Shown here: in pieces, positions 40,882 through 60,035 of the stretch
Position numbering within the stretch: the stretch's first letter is position 1
Layout: every line of letters starts with the position of its first letter
Origin: an uncultured Planctomycetota bacterium
GTDB lineage: Bacteria > Planctomycetota > Planctomycetia > Isosphaerales > Isosphaeraceae
Length of the DNA stretch: 64,000 nt
Direction of reading: 5' to 3'
Assembly: GCA_963823665.1 (NCBI GenBank)
Contig: CAWGMQ010000004.1
Location: 768,001-832,000 of the forward strand
Position numbers and translations under genes: made by a program
The notes under the pieces: generated by a model
What the model was told of the DNA's origin: nothing
The model's input: only the letters and a program-made list of their open reading frames with translations
Databases searched by the model: none

Positions 40882-40934
40882 GCGGGCGGCACACGGAGTG
40901 TGCGTGCTACAGATTCCCTTCGCGGAGCGAAGGG
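40882..40934 (-). repeat. GTAG REP copy plus a second hairpin between convergent genes
   Basis: Reverse complement GTAGCACGCACACTCCGTGTGCC; CCCTTCGC-GGA-GCGAAGGG at 40916-40934. Confidence 0.7.
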
Positions 40935-40968
40935 TGACACTGGGGAAGCGTTCCGGCTCGTACGGTGG

Positions 40969-42455
40969 TTACGGGCGTTGCAGTTCGTTTCGAAGGCGTC
41001 CGACGATCTCGGGGTGGTCGCTGGCAACGTTCTTGAGCTCGCCGGGATCGGTCGCGAGGTCGTAGAGCTGGGGCTCGGGGGCGTTGCCTAGCTCGGAGTT
41101 GGTCGGGATGTTCTTCTTCGGTCCGTTCGAGGGCGGAATGAACTTCCATTTGCCTTGACGCACGGCGAGGCCGCCCGCGTGTTCGATCAGCGTCTCCCGG
41201 CCGACCGGGTCTTCGCCGAGGAGCGCTGGAAGATGGTTGCGCGCTATCAAGGCTTGTCGGGATGGAGGCGGGAGAGCCGGCGAGGGCGGCGAAGCTCGCG
41301 AGAAAATCGATTTGACTGACAAGTGCCTTCGAGGTTCCGGGCTTGACCTTGCCTGGCCAGCGCACCATGAATGGGACTCGCGTTCCGCCCTCAAATCTGC
41401 TGTACTTGCCGCCGCGAAACGGGCCGGCGGGTTTGTGGCCGCCCAGCTTCTCGACGGCGTCGTCGCGATAACCGTCATCCACGACCGGGCCGTTGTCGCT
41501 GGTGAAGATGACCAGCGTGTTCGCGGCAAGCCCGTTTTCGTCGAGGGTGCTCAGCACCTCGCCGACCGACCAGTCGAACTCGACGATCGCGTCGCCTCGC
41601 GGGCCCATCCCGCTCTTGCCCGCGAAGCGAGGGTGCGGCACGCGCGGGACGTGGATGTCGTGGGTTGCGAAGTAGAGGAAGAATGGTCTGGATTTGTTCC
41701 GGTTGATGAAAGCGACCGCCTCGCGCGTGAAGGTCTCGGCCATGGTTTCATCGTTCCAGAGGGCGGATTTGCCTCCGTGCATGAAGCCGATGCGGCTGAT
41801 ACCGTTCACGATCGCCATGTCGTGGCCGTGGCTGGGATGGAGATGCAACAGATCCGGATCGGTCTTGCCCGACGGGATGCCGGGGAAGGGCTTGTCGTAA
41901 CGGACTTCGATCGCGTCGGCCGGGTCGAGGCCGACGACGCGATGGTCTCTGGATGTAGACGCACGGGACGCGGTCGCCGGTGGCGGCCATGATGAACGAC
42001 TCGTCGAAGCCAACCTCGAGCGGGCCTGGCTTGATCTCGGCATTCCAATCGAGCTTGTCGCCGCCCAGGCCGAGGTGCCACTTGCCGACGACGCCGGTGC
42101 GATAGCCGGCACTTTTCAGCACGCTTGCCAGCGTGGTTGTTCCGGGCTCGATGATCAGCCGGGCGTCACCGGGCAGAACGCCGGTGCCGCGTTTACGCCA
42201 GGGGTATTGACCGGTGAGCAAGGCGTATCGGGATGGCGTGCACGTCGCGGAGCTGGAGTGGGCGTCGGTGAAATTCAGGGCGTGTTTTCGCAAGTTGTCG
42301 ATGTTTGGGGTGAGGCCGGCTTTTGCTCCGTTGCAGCTTATGTCGCCGAAGCCGACGTCGTCGGCGTAGATGAACACGATGTTGGGATTGTCGCGGGCAG
42401 CATTGGCGGGCGTCGCAAACGAGAGGACGAGAAGAGCGACGACGAATCGAATCAT
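40969..42455 (-). CDS. Sulfatase (Cys/FGly type), frameshifts near 41948 and 41241
   Basis: Signal peptide, ADDVGFG, CTPSRYALLTG, GKWHLG / FTSDNGP, GGKYSRFEGGTRVP / QLYDLATDPGE. Confidence 0.9.
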
Positions 42456-42619: not shown

Positions 42620-45600
42620 CTATCGTTTCTTTTTTCGTCGTGCGCGGTCTGGGTGCGTTGTGGGGCGTTTCGATTGGGCGCCGACGGTCACATCCCACCC
42701 CAGAAGCTGCGACAGCTCGGCCAGTGCCTTTGCCAATTGATCGGGCGGGATGCTGGCCTTTGCCGCGCATTGGTGGATACGCTCGGGTGACAGAGGGAGA
42801 TGGGGATCGACATAGAATGGCATCGAGTTCATGTGTCGGTTGAAGAGCAGGCGCCCGAATTCGGAGTGGGTCTGCGCAAGAAAGCTGGCTGCAGCGCCTC
42901 GCGCGCTACCGCCTGCATCCTCGACCGCGCGTCTGGCGAGCAGTTCTCGCGTCGCCTCGTCAGGCCACATCGTGGCCAGTGATTCCAGTGCCTGGCCGCG
43001 CGGCGCCTCGTCTGGGTCTTTTATGGCGCGCTCAGTGACCAGCGATCGTGTTCTTTCGTCAGGCCACTTCCTCGCCAAGAACCGCAGTGCTTCCGCTCTG
43101 ACGTTGTCGCGCGGATGTCGAAGGGCGTATTCGGTGAGCAGCGCTCGCGTCCGTTCGTCCGGCCACCCCTTCGCCAACGACATCAGCGCGACGAAGCTTA
43201 CGATGCGATCCGGATCTTCAACCCCGCTTTTAGTGAGCAGTGCTCGTGTCGTCTCGTCAGGCCAATTCTTCACCAACAATTCTAGCGCGTGCCGCCTGAC
43301 CAAGCTGGAGCCATCGTGGACAGCGCATTCGCACAGCAGCGATCGAGTCGATTCATCGCGCCACAGCCCGGTCAGCCTTTCCAGCGCACGTTTTTTGACG
43401 AAAGTGTTACCGTCCTGGATCGCGCGCTCGGCGAGCAGGGCTCGCGTCGTTTCATCAGGCCACCACGCCGCCAATGACCCAAGCGCGGACTCTCTCGTAT
43501 CCGCTTCCTCATCTTGAACGGCAAGCCCTGTGAGCAGCATGCGCATCGACTCATCCGGCCACTGCTTCGCCAACTTCGACAAAAGACTCCCTCTCATGTT
43601 GTCGTTCGGCTTGAGGATGGCTCGTTCCGTCACGAAGACTCGGGTCGTTTCGTCTGGCCACTTCTCCATCAGTGATTCAAGCGCGATCCTTCTTGGGCTG
43701 CCGTCCCGATCTTGATCTTCGATTGCGCGGCGGGTCAGCAGCGCTCGCGTAGTCTCATCAGGCCACTTCTCCGCCAATGACTGTAGCGCGACATACCGCG
43801 GGCTGCTGTGCTCATCTGCAACGGCGCGACGGGTCAGCAGCTCTCGCGTCGTCTCGTCAGGCCATTTCTCGGCCAAGGACTTCAGCGCGGCAGATCTTGG
43901 ACTGTGGTGCTGATCTTTCACGGCGCGACGGGTTAGCAGCTCTCGCGTCGTCTCGTCAGGCAACTCCCCCGCCAGCGCGAGCAACGCGGCCGCTCTGAGT
44001 TCGCTCGCCTGATCGTCGATGGCGAGTTGAGTCAGCAGCTCGCGCGTCGTCTCATCCGGCCACCTCTGGGCAAGCGCCGCGATCGCGCTTGCAGGAAGGT
44101 AGGGGTTTTCACAGCGGCACAGCGCCCACACCGCTTCGCGATTGCCCGTCACGTATGCGACGAAATCTGACCAGTGCTTGGTCACCAATCCCGTTTTCAA
44201 GGTGGTTCCGACAGACAGCGCGATGCTCAAGAGCTCTTCGCGACCAGGCCAGCGCGAGCCGAGCTCCCGATAAGCGGTCTGTAGGTCGTTCACGAAGCGT
44301 GTGTTGATCGTCTCAATATCGTCTGATCCTCTAAAAAGGGCAATGACCGACCGAATCAATTGCCTTCCCGCCGAGTCGAGGCGGTCGAGCTTCCGACATT
44401 CAGACAAGCACCAGATTGCCAACGGCAACTCCGGCAACGGGGCTACGCCACCCCACTTTCCGAGATCCGGCGCGCCACCAGATGCTCGACGATTTGGCCG
44501 ACGAACAGCTCATCGATCTGACCGCAAACCAGGCGCAACACTTCTCGCCAATCGTCATCGCGGCGCCGGAGGTCGAACAAGCCGATCAAGCCTTTTTCGT
44601 CCAGCGTCCGGGAGATGTTGAACTGATGCACGATCTCGGCGGCGCAGAAGTATTCCAGAAATGTGCGATGCACAAAGCTGTAGGTATCGGCACCGACGAA
44701 GCAGAGGATGAAGTTCCGCGTTCGCAGGTGGTCGACGACCGAGCGCGCGGCGGCGCGCAACTGCGCGAAGTTCAGCTCGGTGCGCAAGTGTTCTTCGATC
44801 AGACCTTCCAACTGGGAACCGCTGATCATGTTTCCTCTCAGGCCGTCAGTGCCGCATTGCATGACGGATGCGACGCGACGGAGCATGTCGCTTTTCTCGC
44901 GCCAACTGACGTCCTTGCTTAAGCCCGGGAAGTCCGCGAGCGCGCGTTCCGTGTCCCATTGATGCAGCAACAGCCGAGACGCCTGGGTATACAGATCAAC
45001 CCGGTCGCGAGGCAGTTCCTGATTGCGGTTCAGGATCGCCATCATCGTCAGGAGTAGCGGATTGCCGGCAAGCATCGCAATCGATTTCGAATCGCGAATC
45101 CCTGCCTTCAGGCGCTCCCGCTTCGGGGTAGACTGCTCGGCGCTTTCAAAGGTTTCCTCGTGCCAGCGATCGATAAATGCGTCGATTTGCGTGGCGTTTA
45201 GATCTTCCAACATGAAGTGCCTGAACTCGGCATTGCGCAGGCGCTGGGGCTGATAACCGACAACGCGCGAAGTGACGATAACTCGCGTGTGCGCATGCTC
45301 GTTGCTGAACCGCTGAATGTCGTTCACAACGTCTTCGCGTGTCTTCACGTCGAAGATTTCGTCGAGGCCATCGAGGAGCAGGAAGACGCGTCCGGGCTGT
45401 TCGAGCATCTGTTCTAAGAGTCCCTGCGGCCATTTGTGCCAGACCGGAGCTTCTTCCAGAAAGCGGAGCAACCCCTTCTGACCCTCGCACTGCCAACGTC
45501 CATAGCTGCCGAGCTCGATTACAAGCGGAACCGGCAAGGCATCACGCGCTGTGGGGTCGGCAATACTGGCCCAACGGAGGGCGAGGTACCGTACGAGCGA

Positions 45601-46598
45601 TGACTTCCCGGAACCAGGGTCGCCGAGGATCACGAGACGGTGGCTCGCACGCGACGGTTTCGGCTGCAAGGCTTCGTCGATGATTTCCAGCACCGCACGC
45701 AACGGCTGGCTGAAGTATTTCAGCCGGAGCTCCTCCGCCTGGAGCTCGCTGGCGGTGAGCCCTTCGGCGGTGAGCTGGCCCGACTCCAGCAGGCGTTTTT
45801 GGTGTTCTTTGGGAATCTCTAGCAAGCGTGGGTTGTATTCGTCACATTGCGCGCTGACTGGGGCACGAAGACACTCCACAATCGCACGCTGTAGAATGCA
45901 CCTGTCGTGTCGAGCATCTCAAAATTGAGCTTGTCGAATTGCTCGAGAACGGCGGTTCGGTAGCGCACGGAATCGAATTGGGCCGGCAACGCGATAGACG
46001 CTCCGTCACGGTCATCGGCCCACGACCGCGACGGATCGGCGAGCCAGAGATTCAAATCGCGGTCGAACACGTCGCGGAATTTGTCGGGACCCGCGTATTC
46101 CGTGTAGAAGACGGGATTGTTGAAGTTTTGCATTCGCTCGCGGAAGGCGAGCAGTTTTTGCCACTGTTCGACGGCTGCTGTCAATTCAGCCAGATCAGAT
46201 GGCATTTCCAACTTTTCTGCTTTGCGGAAGAACCACTTGATCTCCGGGAATCCGGTGTCCTTGCGGCTCTTCATCGCCCAGTTGAATTCTTCTTCCGTGC
46301 CTGATTCCGCGACGCCGGTGCGCGAGCCGAACCGCTGGCCCATGATGCCGACGACGAGGGCCAGCGAGTCCTTGTACTTTTCGAGTGTTTGCTGCGTGAT
46401 GAGTTCCTGAGGCCGGCCGACGCCGGTCGTCGCGTAGTTTTCCCAGTCGATGACGACGAATCTTGCGTTCCAGAGATGGGCGGTGCTGCGATTGTAGTCG
46501 TCGAAGAAGCGGCGCACGTGCTGGCGTTCGGCGCTCACGTCGCCGGGGGATGCGAGGAAGACGTGGTATTCCTTGACGAGTGGGGGAGTGAGCGGCAT
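42620..46598 (-). CDS. NLR-like STAND NTPase: DUF4062 - NACHT - 12 HEAT-like 33-aa repeats - C-cap (copy 1; frameshifts near 45850 and 44472)
   Basis: VFLASPGDV...RFGS.TG..SGTEEEF (DUF4062); GDPGSGKSS, LLLDGLDE, NPLLLTM, HRTFLEYF; WPDETTR repeats. Confidence 0.85.
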
Positions 46599-46814
46599 CG
46601 GAGATCACCCCTGGAAATCTGCGTTCATGTCGGGTCGTCGGGATGGGGTGATTTTCCGATACGGTGCGAGACCGGGCAAGGTGGGTGCGGTTGGCGGGAC
46701 GGAGGATTCCTGTCGATGGCTTGATTTGATGCGTTTGAACAGGGAGTTCGGAAGTCGCGATGAATCATCGCGAGATCTCCGGACGTGTGCGCGATCCCAG
46801 GCTAATGCTCGCTC

Positions 46815-46874
46815 GGCTCGGCGGGACTTCGCACTCCCAAGGCACATTCAGCTCGGCGCGAGCCTCGCACTCCC
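46815..46874 (+). repeat. Two degenerate REP-like direct repeats
   Basis: ggctcggcgggacttcgcactccc and agctcggcgcgagcctcgcactccc. Confidence 0.55.
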
Positions 46875-46894
46875 GGCAGCCGTTCAGGTCCGCA

Positions 46895-49465
46895 TCATTT
46901 CTGCGATCGACTAAGCACCCGATCGGCTTCCGCACGAAGGGACGGCACGTACGGGCCGGGCGATCGACGCGGGGAGGATTTGTCCAGCGCCTGGATGTAC
47001 CAATCAAGGGCCGCCTCTTTCTCCCCGCGGCGCCAGGAGATCATCGCCATCAAGAACTGCGCGGAGGCGTCCAGGTCCGAAGATCGGAGCGTCATCGACT
47101 TCCTCGCGGTCTCTGCGGCGAGCGGCACCTCGCCTGCGCGCAGGTAGGCCAGCGCGAGCGTGCACATGAAAGCGCGATCGTTTGGCTTCCTGACCACAGC
47201 TTTTTTCGCAAGGTCGATCGCCTCGGTTGCGCCAGGCGACGGCGCGTCTGCCCTCAATACGAGTAAACGGGCAAGGTCGCTCTGCGCGTCGGGGTCGTCA
47301 GGAGCAAGCTTGAGGGCACGACGGAGGGCTTCTTGCGCTTCGCCAAACCTTTGCATCTGTTCCAGCTTATGCGCGAGCCCGCGGTATGCGGACGCCCAGT
47401 ATTTCGCTAACGCCGTCGATCCTGACACAGCGGCCGACTGCGTCTTGTAAAAAGCCAGAAGCTGATCCCAATCCGGGACGGACCCCCCAGATCCCGTTGG
47501 GGAATGCTGGCGCCACGTGGCGATCTGGATCCAATGTTCAGTCAAGTGGTCGAGGATTGCAGGATCGTCAGGGAATTCGGCTAGAAGGCTCGCGTCCATT
47601 GACTTGACTCGACTGAACGCTGCCTCCGCTGCGCCTATTCCGCCCGTGATCGTCTGATACATGCTCACATTCAGCTCCACGTCGCTGATTGTGCGCCGGA
47701 TCTCGGTATCACCTGGCGAGCCTGCCAGCAGCTCTTTGTAGAGCTCGAGCGATCGCTGTAAATCCTTTGCGGCGCGAGGATCGCCCATGCCCACCATGCG
47801 AGCGAACCCCAGACGCCTGAACGCGAGCGCTTGCATCGGCTTGGCGATGTGGGGCTCTTGCAGCAGCTTTTCGTAGAATTCGATGGCCTGCCGGAAAAAC
47901 TCGGCACGAATCTTATTTGCCTCCGGGGACTGGGCGGCTTCGGCGTAGCGGGACATTCCCTTCATGGTCAATTCATCAGAGAGACGGAGGATCTGCTCGA
48001 ATCCTCGGTCTGCCTGCTGGAAGGTGAGGCGCAGATTATTGTTCACCTGCGCCGTGGTTCGTTGCTCCCACCAGAGCACCGGAGCGGCAATGGCCAGGGC
48101 GAGGAACGCGACTGCGCCCGTTGCTCCGAGGACGGCGCGGTGGCGGCGAGCCCATTTGGCCGCGCGCTCGGCAAACGTGGGACGGCGGGCGAGAACCGGC
48201 TTGTCCTCGAGGAAGCGACCGAGATCATCGGCGAGCTCCTGTGCGGTGGGGTAACGCCGCTCCGGATCTTTGTCCATGGCCTTCAGAACGATCGTCTCGA
48301 GATCGCGGGGGATCGCCGGGTCGAGCCTGGCCGGTGCCACCGGCTCGTCCTGGGCGATCTGCCGCAGCAGCTCCTGGCGGTCATGACCGTCGAATACCGG
48401 CTTGAGCGTCAGCAACTCGTAGAGCGTGGCACCGAGCGAGTAGATATCGGAGCGCGGGTCGTGGACATTCCGGCGGCGCAAGACCAGCTCCGGCGCCATG
48501 TAGCGCAACGTGCCGAGAAGGTCGCCGGTGCGAGTGACGCCCGGCTCGTCCTGGAATCGTGCGAGGCCGAAGTCGGTGACCCAGAGGTTGCCTTTCGAAT
48601 CGATCAAGAGGTTCGAGGGCTTGATGTCGCGGTGGAGGATCCCCATCGCGTGGGCGTGGGCGAGGGCGTCGGCGGCCTGAATGGCCAGTTTCGCGATCGC
48701 CCGAAATGCGCGGCGAGTGCGGACGGAGGTCGTCCCCGCCGGAGTTACCGTTGAGGGTGAAAGCTCGCGCGCGCCGCCGTCAACCCCGTCCACGATAAGC
48801 CCGCTTGCGGCCGGGCTCAGTCTTGCCGGTGACGGCCGCCCGGCGGGTGTGCCCGGCTCGCCCTGCGGAGATGACCCGGCGGCGCGTTGCTGGCGGATCA
48901 GCTCGGCAAGCGTGGGCCCCTCAATGTATTGCATTGCATAGAAGTGACTGCCTCCTTCGCTGCCGACGGCGAAGATCGGCACGATATGCGGGTGGTTGAG
49001 CTGGGCGACCGCCTGGGTCTCAACGCGAAATCGCTGCAATTTGAGCGGGTCGAGGGCCGCAGTCCCGGCCAGGACCTTGAGCGCGACCCGGCGGCCGAGC
49101 GAAGCTTGCTCGGCCTCGTAGACGATGGCCATTCCGCCGCGGGCGATCTCGCGAACGAGCCGATACTCGCCCAGCAGAGTCTCAGGTGGCAGGGAATCCT
49201 GGGACGGCGAGTGCGCGCGATTCGAGTAGCCCGACTCGGCAGCGGAGTGGACGAACTCGACGATGTCGAACCAATCGGCGAGTGAATCGGCGATCTCGGG
49301 GTGCTCCTCGAGCCATTGTTCGCGCGAGGGCCGTCTGCCCGCTTCGAGCTCGGCCAGATAAGCGGCCAGGGCCGATGCCACCCGTGGGTCATCGTGCGAG
49401 GCGAGGACGCCCGTTGAAACAGACGGCGTCGCACCCGCGCTGCTAATGTGATTGTCCACGCTCAT
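46895..49465 (-). CDS. Ser/Thr protein kinase with TM segment and C-terminal TPRs
   Basis: ARGGMAIVY, VALK, HRDIKPSN, DFGLA, YMAPE; ATG 49465 in ATGA overlap with the sigma stop. Confidence 0.92.
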   Translation of the reverse strand: MSVDNHISSAGATPSVSTGVLASHDDPRVASALAAYLAELEAGRRPSREQWLEEHPEIADSLADWFDIVEFVHSAAESGYSNRAHSPSQDSLPPETLLGEYRLVREIARGGMAIVYEAEQASLGRRVALKVLAGTAALDPLKLQRFRVETQAVAQLNHPHIVPIFAVGSEGGSHFYAMQYIEGPTLAELIRQQRAAGSSPQGEPGTPAGRPSPARLSPAASGLIVDGVDGGARELSPSTVTPAGTTSVRTRRAFRAIAKLAIQAADALAHAHAMGILHRDIKPSNLLIDSKGNLWVTDFGLARFQDEPGVTRTGDLLGTLRYMAPELVLRRRNVHDPRSDIYSLGATLYELLTLKPVFDGHDRQELLRQIAQDEPVAPARLDPAIPRDLETIVLKAMDKDPERRYPTAQELADDLGRFLEDKPVLARRPTFAERAAKWARRHRAVLGATGAVAFLALAIAAPVLWWEQRTTAQVNNNLRLTFQQADRGFEQILRLSDELTMKGMSRYAEAAQSPEANKIRAEFFRQAIEFYEKLLQEPHIAKPMQALAFRRLGFARMVGMGDPRAAKDLQRSLELYKELLAGSPGDTEIRRTISDVELNVSMYQTITGGIGAAEAAFSRVKSMDASLLAEFPDDPAILDHLTEHWIQIATWRQHSPTGSGGSVPDWDQLLAFYKTQSAAVSGSTALAKYWASAYRGLAHKLEQMQRFGEAQEALRRALKLAPDDPDAQSDLARLLVLRADAPSPGATEAIDLAKKAVVRKPNDRAFMCTLALAYLRAGEVPLAAETARKSMTLRSSDLDASAQFLMAMISWRRGEKEAALDWYIQALDKSSPRRSPGPYVPSLRAEADRVLSRSQK

Positions 49466-50089
49466 TGCAGGTCCCCCAGCGTGCCGCGAAGATGGCGCAG
49501 GGCGCGGAACCACATGTTCTTGACACTGTCTTCCGTGCGGTCGAGCTCCATGCGCCACCTCGGCGAAGCTCAAGCCCTCGAGATGCCTCAGAGCAATGAC
49601 ACTGCGATAGGGTGCCGGTAAGTGCTCGATCGCCTCGGCCAGGCGAGCGGCCCGCTCTTGCTTCAGTACCCGCTGGCTCGGCGATGTGTCAGGGGCGACC
49701 GGATCGAATAATCGCCCAGCGCACGAATCATCCAGAGTGACCAGTCGATGTTCCCGGCGCAGGTCGCGCCTCGCGGTGCCGAAGTAATGGCGCAACTGAT
49801 TCATCAGGATTGTCGCGAGGATTTTCCTCAGCCAGCAGAGGAACTCGCGCTCGGTGCTGCCGCGGAACCGGCCGATGTCTCGATATGCCTCGAGCGAGAC
49901 GTCTTGCAGCAGGTCTTCAATATCCAGCTTCACACGCAGGCGGCGGCCAAGGCGGCCCTGGACCTGCTCGACAAGCGGGTCACGGCAACGGTCAAGCAAT
50001 CGAACCAGGGCAGGGCTCGACCCTGCCTTGGCGAGAGTCAACAAAATCTCGGGGTCTGTGTGCATCTCGAACGTCACGCGCGAATTCAT
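49462..50089 (-). CDS. ECF sigma-70 factor (planctomycete type), frameshift near 49552
   Basis: DIEDLLQDV, FRGSTEREFLCWLRKIL, DTSPSQ, LRHLEGLSFAEVA; the shifted frame continues DRTEDSVKNMWFRALRHLR...-stop. Confidence 0.88.
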
Positions 50090-50350
50090 AAGTCCTTCAG
50101 TCACCGAACGGATGAAAACGCGCCGCGGCGCGCGAAATTCTGACGGATTTCCGGCGCAAGTTTTGACTATATCCAAGACTTGCGGCTTCAACCACGCGCT
50201 CGGGAATTCCGCATTCCCACTCGCGCGGCGCAAACCCTGGGGAACCGTGACCTCTGGCTCGCCCAGGAGAAACATCCTGCTTCGACCATTCGAACCAGCA
50301 TCCGCGGGGCGATTGCCTCGTGTGCGCAACGACACCCGGGAGGAACGAAG

Positions 50351-53300
50351 ATGGCCGCTCGCAAGTCACCTCGTATCAGTCGGTCCCTGCGAACCTCCGG
50401 ATCCTGCGCACCGCAAACGCCGCTGCCTGATGCCGCTGGTGGAAGGACTCGAGAACCGCGTCATTCTCAGCGGCACTCTCTCGGCCATTCCACCTAGCTT
50501 GGCCCTGGTGCCGGCCGCTGACCTTGTGACGACCACGAACACGAGCGATGGACTCATACCGGTCCGGCTCGCCAGTGGTGCGATCGGCTGGCTCGAGGCG
50601 CCGGCGGCTAGGGAACTGCAACTGCCGCCGGGCTCGGGCTCGTCTGGCGGCCCGACTCTGCCCTCGCAGCAAACGATCCATGCCATTCCCGGCGCGATTC
50701 TCGGCAGTCTGCCCGTGAGCTCGCCTTTTGATAACGCGGGAGACCAGGGGTCGGTGGGACCTGCCGGATACACCCCGGAGCAAATCCAGACGGCATACGG
50801 GCTCAGCACCGGCGACGGCTACAACAACGAGATCAGCTTCGGGACAGTCAAGGGAAATGGTGCCGGCGAGACCATCGGCATTTATGAGGAGGGTTACAAC
50901 CCGTCTTTCGTCGACACGAGCGATCCCACTTACAGCTCGAGCGCACTGGCGATTTTCGACAAGACATTCGGCCTGCCCGAACCGCCGAGCCTGACGTTCG
51001 TCGACCACACCGAGACGCCGATGTCAGCGACCAATAACAGCTCGAACAACCCTGACTTCGCTAATTACGGCGCGGGAGATGAGGTCGCACTCGATATTGA
51101 ATGGGTGCACGCGATGGCGCCGGCTGCCAGCATTGTCGTCCTCTGCGCGGTTCCCCAATCGAACAACTACTACGAGGACATCCCGCTGGGAATCGCGACG
51201 CTGGCCGGCCTTCCCGGTATTTCCGTGATCTCGGCGAGCTATGGCTGGTATCTCGACGACTTCGGCGTCGAATCGCTCGAGCAAAGCTGGGACAGCACGA
51301 TCATCGGGCCCGCGCTCGTGGCGAACCCCAACGTGAGTGTCTTCGCTGCAACCGGCGACAACGGGGCGTACTACGGGGTGACTTACCCGTCGGCCTCGCC
51401 GGAAGTCGTCGGGGTCGGCGGCACGAGCCTGGATCTCACGCAAAAGAATGAGTGGAGCAGCGAAACCGGGTGGAGCAGCGGCGGCGGCGGATACAGCGAC
51501 GCGTTTACTCTTCCTTCCTTCCAGCAGAACGACGGCTTCTCGGGCAATGTCTACGATCAGCGAACGACGCCCGATGTCGCAGCGGATGCCGACCCGTATA
51601 CCGGGGTGGCGTTCTACGATCCCTTCGATCTCGGCGCGGCCACGCCGTGGGCACAGATCGGCGGCACAAGCCTGGCGACTCCGCTCTGGGCCGGCATGGC
51701 CGCAATCATCGATCAAGGGCGCGCCGCAGCCGGCGGCAAGTCGATCGGCTCGACGGCGATGCTTTCAGACATTTACGAATTAGACAACCTCGCGCCCGGC
51801 GATTTTCACGATGTGACGCAGGGGAACAATGGCTACCAGGCGGGCCCGGGATACGATCTCGTCACGGGCGTGGGATCGCCCAAGGCCAACCTGCTTATTC
51901 CTGCGCTCGCCGCGCTGGGGCAAGCCAGCACCGCGAGCATCTCCACCCAGCCGCCGCCGAGCGTGGTCACCGGCGCCACGTTCGGCATCATCGCGTCGGC
52001 GACCGACTCTCTTGGGATTATCGATCAAGGCTACAGCGGCAGTGCAACGCTCTCGCTGGCGAGCGGGCCGAGCGGGGCCACCTTCACTCCCCTGACCGTG
52101 CCAGTCACGGATGGTCTGGCGGTTTTCACAAATGTTTCCCTGGGCAGCAAGAAGGGGAGCGGGTACACGTTCCGAGTTTCCATGACCGGCCTTCCCTCGA
52201 CGCTGACCAATCCGACCGCTCTCGTTGCGCCGCAGTCGAACACAGGCTACTTCTATCCGTTCCCGCTGTCGAACAGCTTGGGGACCGCGGTCGCCGCGGC
52301 TGACTCGAATGCGCTTGCGAGCGAGGTCATCACGCTCTCGGTCTCGAGCATTCCCTATGCGGTGACCGGCGGCCAGCTCTTGATCCAGAACACGTCGACG
52401 CAGAAGAGCAAGTCAATCACGATTACCGGACAAGGCGAGTCGAGCTCGGTCATCAGCGCGCTGTCGACAAGCCGCGTGTTCGAGATCGTGGGGAACAGCT
52501 CGCTCTCGGTGCTCATGCACGGCCTGGCGATCAGCGGCGGCCGGGCGAGCGACGGCGGCATCCTGGGGGGCGGCGCGGCGCTGGGCGGGGGGCTATTGAT
52601 TGACGGGGGCAACGTGGCGCTTTCGAGCGTCGCCGTGATGGGCAACGCCGCCAGTGGTGCGGCCGCGGCGGGGGGAGCTGTCGGCCACTCGGCGACGGCG
52701 GCGCATCCGACTGGAGGGCCCGGCGGCAACGGAGGCGCGGGCGGCAATGCGCTCGGGGGCGGCATTTATCTGGGCACGGGGACGCTGACGCTCACGAGCG
52801 ACGTCATCGAGGGTAACGTGGCGCAGGGTGGTGCGGGCGGCGACGGCGGGCGCGGCGGCAATGGATTCTCCGAGTACCAGACGACGTCGGGCAACAGCTT
52901 CATCGGTTCGTTCTACGCGGGCAATGCTGGCAATGGTGGCGCCGGCGGTGCCGGCGGCAACGGTAATGGCGGCGGACTTTACATCGCCGGTGGGAGTCTC
53001 GCTCCCCTGAATAGCAGCGTCGTGCTGGAGGGCAACTCCGCGCAAGGGGGTACGGGAGGCGATGGAGGAGCAGGAGGACGTGCAGGACTATACGGAGATT
53101 TTCGCGCCGGCAACGGCGGTGCCGCGGGACCTGGCGGCGACGGCGCCGGCGGCGGAATCTTCCTGGGCAACGTGAGCGTGCAGGTGTACCGCCCGAGCCA
53201 GATCGAAGGTAACACGGCCGCTGGAGGCGTGGGTGGGCGCGGCGGCAACGGAGGCACGGGGGCGCTGGGAGCGAACGGCGCGTTCGGCGTATCGGGCGGA

Positions 53301-56300
53301 CCAGGCGGGAATGCCGGCAACGGGTACGCCGGCGGCAACGCCGGCGCCGGTGGTGCCGGTGGATGGGGGCGCGGCGGCGGGATTTATGTGCCCGGTGGCG
53401 GCGTACTCGTGCTGAACCAGGGGAGCAGCCTCGCGGGCAATCTTGCAGCCGGCGGAGCGGGCGGCGATGGCGGCGACGGAGGATCAGGCGGCTTCGGTGG
53501 TGACGGCGGCCGCGGTGGCCTTGGAGCTGCCGGGGCTCTTGGCGGCGGTGCAGGCGGGCCGGGGGGTAAAGGCGGCGAGGGCGGTAACGCCGGGCGCGCT
53601 GGACTTGCCGCGGCAGGTGGCTACGGCGGCAGCAGCGCCGGCGGTGGAATCTATCTCGGCGGCGGGCTCGTTCAGGAGAACGCCGGTGCTTCCGTTGCAT
53701 CGAACATCGCCCTTGGCGGGGCGGGCGGAGTTGGTGGACATGCTTACGTGGGCGAAGTCGGCTTTGCCGGCAGCGGTGGACCGGGTGGGCCAGGAGGCGC
53801 GGGCACGGCATTGCATCCGACCGGCGGCATGGGAGGAGCAGGGGCGCAGCCGGCACCGTCGGCTTGGTTGCGGCGGCCAATAACGGCGCTAACGGAGGAG
53901 CCGGCGGGGCCGGCTACGGCGGAGGAGTTTATCTTCAATCTGGATTGTTGACGTTCGACGATGGGTCGCTCTCCGGCAATCAGGCGATCGGCGGCTCCGG
54001 TGGTGCGGGCGGCGTCGCGGGGTATGGCGACCCCGGCGGCTATGGTGCGCAGGGCGGTCGCGGCGGCACAGGGGGCCCCGGTGCGGCCGGGGCTGCCGGA
54101 GGGGCGGGCGGCGTCGCCGGCCTCTTGGGGCATGTCGACAATGGCGGGCGCGCAGGCAACGGCGGTATTGGCGGAGCAGGAGGCATCGGTGCGGGTGGCG
54201 GCCTGTATTTCGGCGGAGGCTTGATCGTGGACAACGGCGCGACGATCACGCTGAACATCGCTCGCGGGGGAGCCGGTGGAGCAGGCGGGTGGGGATTCTC
54301 GGGCGGGCAGGGCGGATTCGCAGGGTATGCCGGCCAGGGAGGCGGTGGTGGAGCGGGCGTGCCCGCGGCAGCGGGCGAGCTCGGTGCAATCGCGGCGCCG
54401 GGTGCCAACGGCGGAACTGGCGGTATCGGCGGCGCCGGCGGGGCTGGCGGAGCAGGCCTCGGTGGTGGCATGTACATATCCACGGGCGCCGTCGCACTTG
54501 CCACAGACTCGATCACGAACAATCAAGCTGTGGGCGGCGCCGGCGGCGCAGGGGGCACGGCTGGCGCTGGAGGATACGGCGGCTCGGGTGGATATGGCGG
54601 CTATGGCGGGGGCGGCGGCGAAGGAACGGGACGAGCGGCAGGGGCAATCGCGGGTGCGGGTGCGCTCGCAGGTCGCGGCGGCAACGGCGGCGTGCCGGGA
54701 ACGCCCGGCGCGGCGGGTGGTGGCGGAATAGCAGCGGGCGGCGGCATTTACTTCGGTGGCGGCTTGCTGCTCGATGGAGGCGCGGCGATCAATGGCAATG
54801 TCGCTGTCGGCGGCGCGGGAGGAGTCGGCGGCGCGGGCGACGTCGGCGGGCGCGGCGGCTTCGGCGGCCCCGGTGGTGGCGGATTCAACGGCGGTTTCGG
54901 GGGTAAGAGCGCGGCCGGAGGCAATGGCGGCGCAGGAGGAACCGGCGGCGCAGGGGGCAACGGCGGAGCGGGCCAGGCGGGAGGCCCGGGCGCAACCGGA
55001 GGCGCCGCCTATGGTGGCGGTGTCTACATCGCATCGGGTACGGTGACATTCATCGGCGGCTCGATCGACGGCGATCAAGCAGTGGGAGGCGCTGGCGGGG
55101 CGGGGGGCGCGGGCGGGGCAGGTGGTGCTGGCGCGAGAGGAGGCCGAGGGGGCGCGGCGCAAACGGTCAGCAAGGGGCGTTCGGAATCTACGGCGGGCAC
55201 GGTGGTGAAGGAGGCGCGGGGGGACGCGGCGGCAATGATGGAATTCCAGGTGTCGCGGGGGCAGGCGGCGCGGGGGGCCAGGGAGGCGCTGGAGATGGCG
55301 GAGGAATGTTTATCGGCGGTGGGACGGTGACGGCAAACGGCACGATCGCGAGCGACGACGAGGCCGTTGGCGGCGCGGGTGGCGAAGGCGGTGCAGGGGG
55401 CAAGGGTGGATTTGCTTATCGGGCAGGGTATGGCGGCGATGGGGGAGGTGGCGGCAACGGCGGCTGGGGCTCGACCGGAGGCATCGGCGCGTCGGGTCAT
55501 GGCGGTGTGGGTGCCAACGGCGCGAATGGCGGCGGCGCGGGTGTAAACCACGCCGGAGGGAATGGCGCCGCAGGCGGAGCGGGCGGGGCGGGCGGCAACG
55601 GCGCGGGGGGCAGCATCTATCAAAGCGCAGGCACACTCGTATGGACCGCGGGGAACATCACTGGAAACACCGCTGTCGGTGGCGTGGGCGGAGCCGGCGG
55701 CGACGGCGGGATTGGTGGAACCGGGGGTGGCGGAGACTCGGGCAACGTGTACACGAAGGGAGGTGGAAACGGAGGATTCGGCGGACGGGGCGGTCCCGAG
55801 CTGTCTGACGGACTTGGCGGCCCGGGCGGGAATGCCGGCAACGACGCGAGTGGCCCGAACGGAGGCAACGGCGGCAATGGCGGCAAGGGGGGCAACGGCG
55901 GCTCCGGCGGCTCCGGCGATGGCGGCGGCTTATATATCAATGGCGGCATCTTGACGCTGAACCAGGGGAGCGTCTCCGGGAACGAGTCTGGTGGCGGCGC
56001 CGGCGGCCACGGCGGAGCGGGCGGAGCGGGCGGCATCGGGATGGACGGCGGCAACGGCGGCGGCGTGTACCAGGGCGTGAGCAGCAGCGGCTCGGCCACA
56101 AGGACAGACTCGGGTTACTACGTCCATTTCGTGGGCGTTAACACGGGCGGCCAAGGCGGAACGAACGGGCCGGGCGGCGCGGGCGGTAATGGAGCCAACG
56201 GTGGAAATGGAGGCAACGGCGGAAACGGCGGGAATGGAGGCAACGGCGGAAACGGCGGGAATGCAGCCGGCGGTGGGATGTACATGAACGCCGGGCTCGT

Positions 56301-56643
56301 GACGGTGAATGGCACGGTGTTCAGCAAAAACACGCTGATGGGTCCGGCGCTGGGCGGCCCGGTTGGCGCGGCAGGCGAAGGCGGCGGCATCGCAACCTCA
56401 CAAGGCGTGCCGCTGGTCGGCCTGGGAGGTCCGGGCGGCTCGGGCGGGTTCAGCAATGGAACCGAGTTCGGTTCGATCGGGACGCAGCGCGGGCCGGACG
56501 GGAAAGCGGGTAAGAACGGAGCGGCCGGTCATGCTGGGGCCGGCGGCGCGGCGGGAACGGCGGCAGGGGCCGCGGGAAGTAATGCTAAGGATACCAACTC
56601 GGGGGGGATTTATGTGGCTAATGGGAAGTTGATTGTGCACTAG
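50351..56643 (+). CDS. Large secreted S53 (sedolisin-like) peptidase with Ig-like domain and long Gly-rich beta-helix/PGRS-like region (~2,100 aa; frameshifts near 50408, 53846, 55157)
   Basis: GGAGG RBS before ATG 50351; LENRVILS leader; EVALDIE, TGDNG, GGTSLATP, GYDLVTGVGSP; ~16 GGG(I/L/V/M)Y...GNxAxGG units separated by GGxGGx tracts. Confidence 0.85.
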
Positions 56644-56770
56644 GTGGTTGATGGTGGGGCGGCGTTGGTACTGGGACAGGGTTGTGATTCGGCTGTGAGT
56701 CGGGCAAGGCGATCTGGGTCTGCGCGGGCTGCTTGATCGACGGATTGTGTGGGATGCGGGGTTCTGCCTC

Positions 56771-59700
56771 TCAGGCGTCTGCACGACCGGTCGCGGCTGC
56801 TTCAGGGCGGGCGCCGACCCTGACGTCCCAGCCGAGGAGTAGCGAGAGCTCGGCCAGAGTCTTTTCCAGTTCGTAGGGCGGGAGGTTGACCATCGCCGCG
56901 CACTTCTCGATGTGTTCGCGCGGGAGAGGATTGTGGGGATCGAGGTAAGGCTTGGGTTCGAACGACTCGAAGAACAGCAGACGGCCGAATTGTGAGTGAG
57001 TCTCGCCAACGATGCTGGCTGCGATGCACCGCGTGCCACGATTGGGATCATTGACGGCGCGTTCGATGAGCAGCTTTCGCGGCCGCTCGTGTGGACACGT
57101 TACCGTCAAGAAGCGCAGTGCGATGCCTCTTACGAAGCCGTCCTGATCCTGGACGGCGCGATCGATCAGCAGCGCTCGCGTCGTCTCGTCAGGCCACGTT
57201 TTCGCCAACAAATGCAACGCGACGTGTCGCGAGGAAACGTCGTGGTCTTGAACCGCTCGTTGGGTGAGCAACTCTCGCGTCGCGTCGTCCGGCCACGTCT
57301 CCGCGGACCGCTGCAATGCGACGCGTTGTACGGAGCGATCGTTATCTTGAACGGCGCGTGTGGTGAGCAGCGTTCGCGTCGTCTCGTCAGGCCACGTCTG
57401 CGCCAGCAACTCGAGCGCGGCGGCTCGTACGGAGCCGTCCCCGTCTTGAACCGCGTGTTTACAGAGAAGCTCTCGGGTCGCCTCGTCCGGCCATCTTCCG
57501 GCAAGAGCACGAATCGCGGGCAATCGGATCAAGGGGTCGTCGCAAACGCACAGTTGTAAGACCAGGTCGCTGCTCGCCATGACGTTTGCGACGAACCCGG
57601 GCCAGCAAGAGGGGCCCAGACTACGGCGAGACTCATTTCGCACGGGTACGACACTACCCAGAAGTTCATCGCGTCCAGGCCAACGCGGCCCGAGCTCCCG
57701 GGATGCGTTGTGAAGGTCGCCCACGAAGAAACTGTGTATGGCAGGCGAGAATCCGGCGGCTCTAAACACACCAGCGACTTGTCGCAACAATTGCCCTCCC
57801 GCCGCAGCGATCTGCTCAGGATTGCGGCATTCAGACAGACACCAGATTGCCAGCGGTAATTCCGGAAGAGGAGTGTCACCGTCCCATTGCTCCAAGTTCG
57901 TGTGTGTGGCCAAACGCTCGACGATGAGGCCGACGTGCTTTTCATCGATCTGACCGCAAATCAGCCGCAAGACTTCTCGCCAGTCGTCGTCGCAGCAGTG
58001 GTCGACGAAAAGCGCGATCAGGCCCTTTTCATCCAGTGTCTTGGCAGTATTGAACTGATGCACGACGTCGGCCGCACAGAAGTACTCCAGAAATGTGCGG
58101 TGCACGAAGCTGTAACTATCCGCGCCCACGAAGCAGAGGATGAAGCTCCGCTGGCGCAGGTGTTCGACCACGGCTCGGGCGGCGGCGGCTCCTGCCTGCG
58201 CGAAGCGCCGATCGTTGCACAGGTAGTCTTCGATCAGGCCCTCCAGCCTTTCTCCAGCGATTATATTTCCCTTAAGTCCGTCGGGACCGGACTGCATGAA
58301 CGACGCGATCTTTCGAAGTATTTCATTCTTTTCACGCCGACCGATCTCTTTGCTCAATCCGGGAAAGTCCGCCAGCGCACGTTCCGTGTCCCATTGATGC
58401 ATCAGCAGTCGAGATGCCTGGGCATACAACTCGACCCGGTCGCGGGGCAATTTCTGGTTGCGGTTGAGGATCGCCATCATCGTCAGGAGCAGCGGGTTGC
58501 GCGCGAACATCGCGATCGATTTCGAATCGCGAATTCCCTTCTTGAGCCGTTCCCGCTTCGGGGCCGCTTGCTCGGCGCTTTCAAAGGTTTCTTCATGCCA
58601 GCGATCGATAAATGCGTCGATTTGTGCTGCGTTCAGGTCTTGCAGCATGAAGTGTCGGAACTCGGCGTCGCGCAGACGCTGCGACTGGTAACCGACGACG
58701 CGTGAAGTGATGACAACTGGCGTCTGCGCTTGCTGGTTGATGAATCGCTGGATGTCGTTGACAACATCCTCACGGGTCTTCGCGTCAAAGATCTCGTCGA
58801 GACCATCGAGCAGAAGGATCGCGCGGCCTGACTGATCGAGCAGTCGTTGCAGAACTCCCGCCGGCCACGTGTGCCAGACTTGACCTTCTTCCAGGAATCG
58901 GACCAACCCCTTCTGACCCACGCACTGCCAGCGACCGTAGCGGCCCAGTTCGATCACCAGCGGAACCGGCACGGCGTCACGCGCTTGGGGATCGGCGATC
59001 CTGGCCCAACGGAGGGCGAGGCACCTAACGAGCGAAGACTTGCCGGAGCCTGGGTCGCCGAGGATCACAACGCGGTGACTCGCGGACAGTGATGTCGTCC
59101 GGAAGGCTCCGTCGATGACTTCCAGCACGGAATGCAACGGCTGGCTGAAGAATCTCCGGCGCAAGTCCTCCGCCTCGACTTCCATCGCGTTGAGTGGTTT
59201 AGCGGTGAGCCGGCCGGATTTCAACAGTCGATTCTGGTGTTCTTTGGGAATTTCGAGCAGCCGCGGGTTATACTCGTCACATTCGCGCGGACTGCGGCAC
59301 GAAGACACTCCATAATCGCACGCCGCTGTAAAACGTGCCTGTTGTGTCGAGCACTTCAAAATTGAGCTTGTCGAATCGCATACGGACAGCGCTTCGGTAC
59401 CGCTCGGAATCGAACTGGGCGGGTAACGCGGAAGACTCCGCGCCGCGCTCAGCAACCCACGGTCGTGACGAATCGGCAAGCCAGAGATTCAAATCCCGAT
59501 CGAACACGTCGCGGAATGTGTCGGGGCCGGCGTATTCGGCGTAGAAGACGGGATACTCGAAGGCCTGCATTTTCTTGCGAAAGTCGAGCACCTGTTGCCA
59601 TTGTGTGAGGGCGATCATCGCTTGGGCAGGCTCGGCCGGGATTTCCACCATGTCCACCTTACGGAAGAACCACTTGATCTCCGGGAAGCCGGCTTCTTTG

Positions 59701-60035
59701 TGGCTCTGCATCGCCCGGTTGAATTCTTCTTCCGTGCCGGATTCCGCGACGCCAGTCGGGGAACCGAATCGCTGGCCCATGATGCCGACAACGAGTGCGA
59801 GGGATTTCTTGTACTTCTCAAGCGTTTGCCGCGTGATGAGCTCCTGGGGCCGGCCGACGCCCGCCGTTGCGAAGTTTTCCCAGTCGACGACCACGAATCT
59901 TGCATTCCAGAGATGGGCGGTGCTGCGGTTATAGTCGTCGAAGAAGCGGCGCACGTGCTGGCGCTCGGCGTTCACGTCGCCGGGCGAGGCGAGGAAGACG
60001 TGGTATTCCTTGATCAGTCGGGGCGTGAGCGGCAT
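56771..60035 (-). CDS. NLR-like STAND NTPase: DUF4062 - NACHT - 5 HEAT-like 33-aa repeats - C-cap (copy 2; frameshift near 59286)
   Basis: Same motifs as copy 1 (VFLASPGDV, GDPGSGKSS, LLDGLDE, HRTFLEYF, WPDETTR, LLGWDV.VGA). Confidence 0.87.

Follow-up and report, generated by a model that had tools for sequence, protein, structure and literature searches.

The window, a stretch of 64,000 nucleotides (positions 768,001 to 832,000 of contig CAWGMQ010000004.1, assembly GCA_963823665.1) from an uncultured bacterium of the planctomycete family Isosphaeraceae, contains two genes on the minus strand that each encode a DUF4062 domain, a NACHT NTPase, an array of HEAT repeats and a C-terminal cap, an architecture that resembles NOD-like receptors (NLRs). 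Copy A (42620..46598) encodes 1326 residues with 12 repeats when read through two assembly frameshifts (near 45848 and 44460), and copy B (56771..60035) encodes 1088 residues with 5 repeats and has a single frameshift at 59283. The starts of the two genes are 13,437 bp apart, with a gap of 10,173 bp between the genes. A preliminary description of the window had reported two same-strand paralogs about 13.4 kb apart with DUF4062, NACHT and a cap, an NLR-like effector-NTPase-repeat order, and 12 and 5 tandem repeats of 33 residues; all of this was borne out by Pfam, by the intact motifs and by our repeat counts, one unit of copy A having 35 residues. Pfam matched DUF4062, NACHT and HEAT_2 in both copies, with DUF4062 at the borderline and NACHT (PF05729) above the cut-off in each. 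At the DNA level, copies A and B are 75% identical over 2998 aligned columns, starting about 58 nt upstream of the ATG within the 5' leader of copy A (46599..46715, minus strand). The common leader is thus about 58 nt, not about 20 bp as given earlier.

The two copies have not diverged evenly along their length. At the protein level they are 79% identical in DUF4062, 72-78% in the linker, nucleotide-binding domain and winged helix, 60% in helical domain 2, 40% in the segment before the repeats and 56% in the cap. The copies therefore differ more downstream of the NTPase, as the preliminary description had stated, with 72-79% identity up to the winged helix and 40-60% beyond it. The ratio of nonsynonymous to synonymous divergence (dN/dS) between A and B in the core is 0.15-0.26. 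Copies A and B are ordinary paralogs from an old duplication, retained under purifying selection. Their synonymous divergence is 0.53 in DUF4062 and climbs along the gene, reaching 1.3-1.5 at the 3' end, with no such trend against the third paralog of the genome, copy C, and gene conversion of the 5' part of A and B is a possible cause. Copy C (G000:C11:753243-758087; L021:10244-15086) has 21 repeats, and its effector and NTPase core is 86-94% identical to homologs of other assemblies. Overall, the host genome (16.5 Mb) contains 9 matches to NACHT and 7 to DUF4062, which include four further DUF4062 genes (G000 C3:724375, C10:285558, C10:750712 and C10:2059703) and six further NACHT matches (C8:616062 and five others).

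A family search with the long frame of copy B gave 4148 matches among 8000 scored candidates of 461-1469 residues, longer homologs falling outside this length range. The homolog counts reported here rest on the best 120 of the 4148 matches, one of which is copy B itself and the others of which are 39-65% identical. By motif rules, 80 of these have DUF4062 at the N-terminus, 24 have NNH2 and 16 are truncated or of another type. The NNH2 domain, which is helical, replaces DUF4062 on the same NTPase and sensor (in P0005, P0079, P0069 and others). The earlier suggestion that one effector is wired to different sensors therefore holds for the sensor, which varies, and fails for the effector, which is swapped in these 24 homologs. 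The 82 complete homologs have 1-16 repeats (median 6) and copy C has 21, so that repeat number is variable across homologs, as expected if the family diversifies; collapse of short reads may explain some of the low numbers. A tree was built from 115 of 123 rows, the 8 omitted rows being truncated at the N-terminus, without repeats, or B itself. In this tree, copies A and B are sisters (SH-aLRT 99), copy C falls in another subclade, and one row with DUF4062 is placed within the NNH2 rows. Close sisters in the tree differ widely in repeat number, for example 21 in copy C and 5 in P0044. Record titles place members in Proteobacteria, Chlorobium, Verrucomicrobia, Acidobacteria, Planctomycetes and Cyanobacteria, and full-length relatives with 54-66% identity were found in records titled Rhodoferax, Chlorobium, Prosthecobacter, Rhodocyclaceae, Acidobacteriota and Verrucomicrobiia. 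Of 120 further genomes from the host family, only 5 gave a match at E<=1e-60 (many are incomplete, 47 of the 121 genomes being at least 90% complete), and we reject the proposal of a planctomycete-specific module. A phage-borne origin was also considered and rejected, as no relative was found in viral_contigs or in the phage collection. The plasmid relatives (39 records) were all below 60% identity, and none covered 80% of the query.

The putative effector domain lies at 46029..46574 in copy A and at 59466..60011 in copy B (both minus strand). It is a divergent DUF4062, scoring 24.7 bits (A) and 24.3 bits (B) with Pfam PF13271 against a cut-off of 24.7, and 26.0-27.1 bits in the genome search. 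The acidic GTEEEF motif, which had been described as intact, is present in both copies (46284-46301 in A and 59721-59738 in B), with the putative catalytic Glu104. This residue is invariant in 52 aligned rows, is kept in 82 of 83 DUF4062-type rows, and aligns with the Glu of the E-Y motif in a canonical DUF4062 from the same genome (KpSwz and TEP1 are outside this alignment). Copy B has Arg for the conserved Trp107 (window 59715-59717) beside the putative catalytic helix, and a read contig agrees. In a structure model of the N-terminal piece of copy B (pLDDT 74.5), strands and helices alternate, five strands in all, and Glu104 lies in the helix that follows strand 3. The top VIA matches of the effector model were TIR-STING (Z 9.7, root-mean-square deviation 3.4, 133 aligned) and Cat1 (Z 9.3), tied with folds other than TIR. 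Foldseek gave nothing informative for the effector model (mixed folds, best E 7e-4), and a homodimer prediction of the effector domain scored 0.00, which gives no verdict either way. From the topology of the model and its top VIA matches, the effector is predicted to have a TIR-like five-stranded alpha/beta fold.

Enzymatic activity of DUF4062 has been reported for other proteins. According to the accessible parts of a preprint by Osinski et al. (bioRxiv 10.64898/2026.05.01.722283), DUF4062 is a TIR-like NADase that requires a conserved Glu, the DUF4062 of Swarozyc is switched on by phage portal, both DUF4062 proteins assayed in vitro consume nicotinamide adenine dinucleotide (NAD+), and DUF4062 is active in human TEP1, where it adjoins NACHT. 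The accessible parts of the Evangelion preprint by Ibarra-Chavez et al. (bioRxiv 10.64898/2026.06.25.731849) describe Glu-dependent defence with reduced NAD+, for which Eva01 requires E87, and call the common mechanism unresolved. A NACHT-HEAT form of DUF4062 is not named in the accessible parts of either preprint, and the supplements may show one among domain architectures. The preliminary description of DUF4062 as a predicted nucleotide-processing (TIR/NDT-like) effector is out of date, since NADase activity has been shown in other proteins. By analogy with these proteins, the DUF4062 effector here probably depletes NAD and kills the infected cell.

The NACHT module of copy A occupies about 44530..45670 (minus strand, ends approximate), with Walker A at 45598-45624, Walker B at 45358-45381, the sensor-1 TSR at 45265-45273, GxP at 45049-45069 and the winged-helix motif at 44647-44676. 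In copy B, the NACHT motifs extend over 58079..59059 (minus strand), with Walker A at 59033-59059, Walker B at 58793-58816 and the winged-helix motif at 58079-58108. Copies A, B and C all retain intact Walker A, Walker B, sensor-1 and winged-helix motifs. The GxP motif, a feature of helical domain 1, is present in A and C and is altered to RNP in copy B (58484-58507). A full-length model of the homolog P0038 (pLDDT 84, pTM 0.62) had NOD2, NLRP3 and NLRC4 among its best Foldseek matches (E 1e-7 to 6e-9), the global TM-scores being low. NPHP3_N matches were also found within the DUF4062-NACHT-HEAT family.

Downstream of the NTPase, copy A has a hypervariable helical pre-repeat segment (44105..44365), 12 alphaRep-like HEAT repeats of 33 residues (42911..44104) and a cap followed by a basic tail (42677..42871), while copy B has 5 alphaRep-like HEAT repeats (57041..57535) and a cap (56810..57001), all on the minus strand. 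The pre-repeat segment is the most variable region of the family, with a mean identity of about 30% as compared with 68-80% in the core, and may carry specificity. The only sequence matches of the family profile in the PDB were 7 artificial proteins (alphaRep binders and the E4-NB2 synthetic fusion), all on the repeats. The entropy profile of 674 units from 119 proteins has its peaks at positions 18-22 and 24 of the unit, with another in helix 1 (position 8). In the accessible part of the alphaRep paper (PMC3754942), the binding face consists of six variable positions, which map to unit positions 20, 21, 24, 25, 28 and 32 here. The match with the alphaRep positions is partly expected, because these positions were chosen from natural variation in the same fold. 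The cap had weak matches to PF24410 (wHTH-Hsp90_Na-associated) in homologs, and a weak search of longer proteins with the last repeat plus cap gave 5 matches, four known family members and one fragment.

The substitutions among recently duplicated units (71 spanning-tree edges from 18 of 24 arrays, at least 80% identity) fell mostly on the same face. All six alphaRep positions were among the top 7 of 33 positions for nonsynonymous change at the 80% threshold, and among the top 8 at 85% and 75%. The six positions changed 3.35 times as much as the helix-1 surface sites (bootstrap 2.4-4.8), and their nonsynonymous rate (pN) was 1.55 times (1.10-2.19) the array-wide synonymous rate (pS), with a range of 1.39-1.85 and intervals above 1. 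The amino-acid variation of the repeats is thus concentrated on the probable binding face. Positive selection at this face is suggested but not proven, as pN at the six sites is about equal to their own pS and relaxed constraint is possible. The arrays also change by whole units. Copy C contains 5 exact DNA duplicates among 20 units (15 distinct), the duplicates being of four unit types. Exact duplicate units were found in 3 of 24 arrays, and a pair of units at least 90% identical in 25 of 118 rows. Repeats more than 85% identical within a gene occur in copy C and not in A or B, in which the maximum DNA identity between units is 81% and 72%, respectively. Because these units are so divergent, the difference in repeat number between A and B is not an assembly collapse.

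The preliminary description had called the two genes paired. We found no support for an operon or for a functional pair with a sensor and a helper, since each copy has its own effector, some 10 kb of unrelated genes lie between the two, and relatives are mostly solitary. No conserved partner gene was found around 22 relatives (127 mechanically called open reading frames, one locus having none), and a scan for promoters and terminators was at chance level. In a sister genome of the same genus (G001, 84% complete), 150 bp separate the same intervening block and the sulfatase gene. This spacer (G001:C5:2110856-2111006; L226) aligns with the leader and first codons of copy A with a local score of 66, as compared with a maximum of 30 after shuffling. 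Because the spacer keeps the leader and first codons, copy A has most likely been deleted in the sister genome. At the site of copy B (L225:3269-15125), the sister genome has a broken TIR-like gene without detectable similarity to the B effector and, about 3 kb further on, an island with an SNF2 helicase, a DUF1156-type methylase and PDC-M02B. This site also holds what we read as a Uma2-like remnant. The sparse occurrence in the host family, the deletion of copy A, and the other TIR-like gene and island at the site of copy B would fit a defence-like ecology.

We propose that copies A and B encode stand-alone bacterial NLRs, of the NACHT type within the signal transduction ATPases with numerous domains (STAND), that oligomerise on a ligand and deplete NAD+ in an abortive defence. 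We put the probability of this reading at about 0.62. The architecture, motifs, fold, repeat dynamics, location of variation and patchy distribution from which it starts were seen directly. STAND proteins are activated by ligand-dependent nucleotide exchange and oligomerisation. At rest, the HEAT solenoid and the cap would hold the nucleotide-bound NACHT module shut, as in STAND biology. A foreign protein, most likely a phage product, would bind the concave face formed by the pre-repeat helices and the helix-2 positions of the repeats, and nucleotide exchange would then drive oligomerisation. The oligomer may bring the TIR-like DUF4062 domains together as an active NADase, as suggested by other DUF4062 proteins, so that NAD+ drops and the infected cell is halted. 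Repeats are gained, lost and duplicated and the binding face takes up substitutions, a pattern that is observed here, and these changes are proposed to retune specificity. It is possible, though rather doubtful, that the arrays act as a self-shuffling natural binder library wired to a suicide NADase, with recombination of units and selection at the six positions as in fungal het-type NLRs. No description of a self-shuffling repeat mechanism for bacterial NLRs was found in the literature searched.

Several results weigh against the proposal of a phage-sensing NADase receptor. The Z scores of the effector in the fold search are middling, with receiver, GTPase and nucleoside deoxyribosyltransferase (NDT) folds close behind TIR. 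In copy B, the RNP replaces a motif whose G is invariant in 76 of 76 aligned homologs, and among the contig pieces listed from 4 runs none spans this codon; copy B may be weakened, or the change may be a base-calling error. Four complete homologs have a single repeat and fit poorly with the array as the sole sensor, though collapse of short reads could be the cause. When set against their own pS, the pN of the six positions is 1.05 times (0.77-1.48; range 1.05-1.15), with 0.15 for the framework. Defence or toxin-antitoxin-type neighbours lie within 4 kb at only 7 of 21 loci by our own classification without a background control, two of the seven being close kin, and copies A, B and C themselves have housekeeping genes or planctomycete signalling genes around them. 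According to the accessible part of Roberts et al. (PMC13581612), STAND clades with and without a role in defence are intermingled. In addition, PADLOC and NCBIfam gave no full-length match to a tested system, and no tested member of the family was found in the literature. We also found no paper on the DUF4062-NACHT-HEAT family or on repeat-number diversification in bacterial NLRs (most subscription papers lay outside the search), no literature on PDC-S60, and nothing relevant on NNH2 with NACHT.

The frameshifts raise the question of whether A and B are intact genes. One break of copy A and the break of copy B sit in the same GC-dinucleotide run, copies A and B depart from 22 and 25 of 386 near-invariant columns (4 in copy C), which places them in the upper tail of 79 rows, and among the pieces listed from the contigs of 4 runs, none bridges the two breaks of A. 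These observations would fit a programmed frameshift, phase variation or decay that leaves the genes split or dead. However, a 525-nt contig from a public run fits B at 59212-59734 without any other letter and with 2 additional bases at 59283, which restores the frame. This is a single contig of depth 3.6, from a library of unrecorded type and possibly from the source sample; the contigs of the 4 runs do not span the repeat arrays. Because the contig supplies the missing bases and closes the frame, we conclude that an assembly error caused the frameshift of copy B. The breaks of A and B in the common run are also of unequal size, the reading frame is continuous at this point in copy C and the homologs, and the neighbouring genes, when compared with the sister genome, have 10 frame-breaking indel clusters in 11.3 kb, summed over both assemblies. 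The two breaks in copy A are thus probably assembly errors too, and we reject a programmed frameshift at the common position. Together with the low dN/dS in the core, these results make split or dead genes highly improbable. The repair from reads that had been called for earlier was therefore achieved for B and not, from the contigs listed, for A. In B, by the read contig, and in the intact homologs, effector, NACHT and repeats form one polypeptide, and we infer the same for A.

Other explanations accept intact genes and differ in output, trigger or role. The N-terminal domain may be a TIR/NDT-like enzyme that makes a signalling nucleotide or hydrolyses nucleosides or nucleotides, leaving NAD+ undepleted. 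The domain is at or under the Pfam cut-off, the NDT-type folds MilB and RCL come within 2 Z units of the TIR matches, and the Evangelion preprint, in its accessible parts, leaves a common mechanism open; on the other hand, no conserved partner gene is there to receive a signal, Glu104 aligns with the canonical Glu, and both proteins tested in vitro in the Swarozyc preprint consume NAD+, which makes another output quite unlikely. A different trigger of the same death switch, either a guarded host protein or the product of a non-phage invader or neighbouring cell (non-self recognition, as in fungal NLRs), is unlikely on balance. It would agree with near-identical repeats and length variation like those of fungal NLR arrays (PMC4986451, accessible part), with genes not clearly in defence islands, and with a wider family rich in cyanobacteria and Streptomyces, NACHT expansions having been linked to multicellular bacteria by Kibby et al. 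(bioRxiv 10.1101/2022.07.19.500537) in its accessible passages. However, the bacterial NACHT, Avs and DUF4062 proteins tested in the papers cited here, as far as their accessible parts go, respond to phage. Rhodoferax and Chlorobium, whose records contain close relatives, are probably unicellular. It is very unlikely that the proteins are non-immune STAND signalling proteins in which the HEAT array serves as a scaffold or spacer and drifts in length by slippage, without selection on specificity. A ratio of pN to own pS near 1 at the variable sites, the tolerance of 1-21 repeats, the existence of non-defence STAND clades and the mostly housekeeping neighbourhoods all point that way, but against it stand variation about 3 times higher on the alphaRep face than on the other exposed helix, binding-face pN of 1.4-1.9 times the array-wide pS with bootstrap intervals above 1, and a patchy distribution across phyla with a clean loss in the sister genome. 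The effector, moreover, comes from a family shown to be cytotoxic in defence.

The closest known systems include the bNACHT proteins of Kibby et al., who describe an "antigen receptor-type" with HEAT repeats and a "hybrid" with a small C-terminal domain. The accessible passages describe effector, NACHT and repeats in a single gene, HEAT sensors, NAD+-targeting effectors, effector swapping and sets of paralogs, as here; unlike here, DUF4062 and variation in repeat number and binding face are absent from those passages. Swarozyc and Evangelion, from the accessible parts of both preprints, are also single genes with an N-terminal DUF4062, a conserved Glu and a C-terminal part presumed to be the sensor, but they consist of a small DUF4062 and an auxiliary domain without an NTPase, and have the motif E-Y where the present proteins have E-F. 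With a NACHT switch and a HEAT solenoid, copies A and B do not belong to either system. In domain content, TEP1, NWD1/2, NPHP3 and bacterial TEP1-like proteins have DUF4062 adjoining a NACHT ATPase, as here, while TEP1-type proteins carry WD40 or TROVE instead of HEAT repeats and a cap. The search of PADLOC that had been suggested gave no full-length match to a tested system and a partial match to PDC-S60. The effector region matched the PDC-S60 model PDLC05050 (E about 1e-25) over about 170 of 906 model positions and the NTPase matched a second model, PDLC05051, weakly; the genes are not members of PDC-S60. In Avs1-21 (PMC13581612, accessible part) and EruA (NF058535), too, a STAND NTPase is joined to a sensor of helical repeats and to a toxic effector; the match to the EruA model scored about 50 bits, where the cut-off is 1000. 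The 7 supplementary files of Roberts et al. have no DUF4062 or NNH2 and have HEAT in unrelated words only, although members may be listed there by accession.

For the sensor, Dyrka et al. (PMC4986451, accessible part) describe fungal NLRs of the het-e/HNWD type with highly conserved repeat arrays and length polymorphism. Near-identical repeats, length variation and variable sites on the concave face are common to these and the present family, while the fungal proteins are eukaryotic, use WD, ANK or TPR repeats, and have been shown to be under positive selection with allelic polymorphism. The alphaRep proteins (PMC3754942, accessible part) belong by sequence to the same HEAT-like repeat family and have the same six variable positions, but they are engineered units about 2 residues shorter, whereas the present array is a natural one of 33-residue units within a receptor. 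The family joins two recent results that are kept apart in the accessible parts of the papers cited here, namely that DUF4062 is an NADase used against phage and that NACHT proteins act as bacterial NLRs. It has thousands of homologs, and its main interest is the alphaRep-like, length-variable sensor. If the repeats set specificity, the receptor follows alphaRep design rules and would therefore be retargetable, and its diversification could be tested in bacteria; if they do not, the family would be another of the many effector-sensor combinations found in predicted bacterial NLRs. A self-shuffling library, if real, would offer a tractable bacterial model for the DUF4062-NACHT proteins human TEP1, NWD1/2 and NPHP3.

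The block between copies A and B (46895..56643) is unrelated to either copy, frameshifted and syntenic in the sister genome. It encodes a planctomycete-type extracytoplasmic function (ECF) sigma factor and a Ser/Thr kinase-TPR protein on the minus strand, and a subtilase and a Gly-rich protein on the plus strand. At window 46895-50335, the ECF sigma factor (TIGR02984-like) and the kinase appear to be fused in one frame of 1146 residues, probably through an assembly indel, and the large subtilase and the Gly-rich repeat protein extend over three frames at 49854-56643. The sulfatase gene at window 40907-42455 is also split by a frameshift, probably another assembly error.

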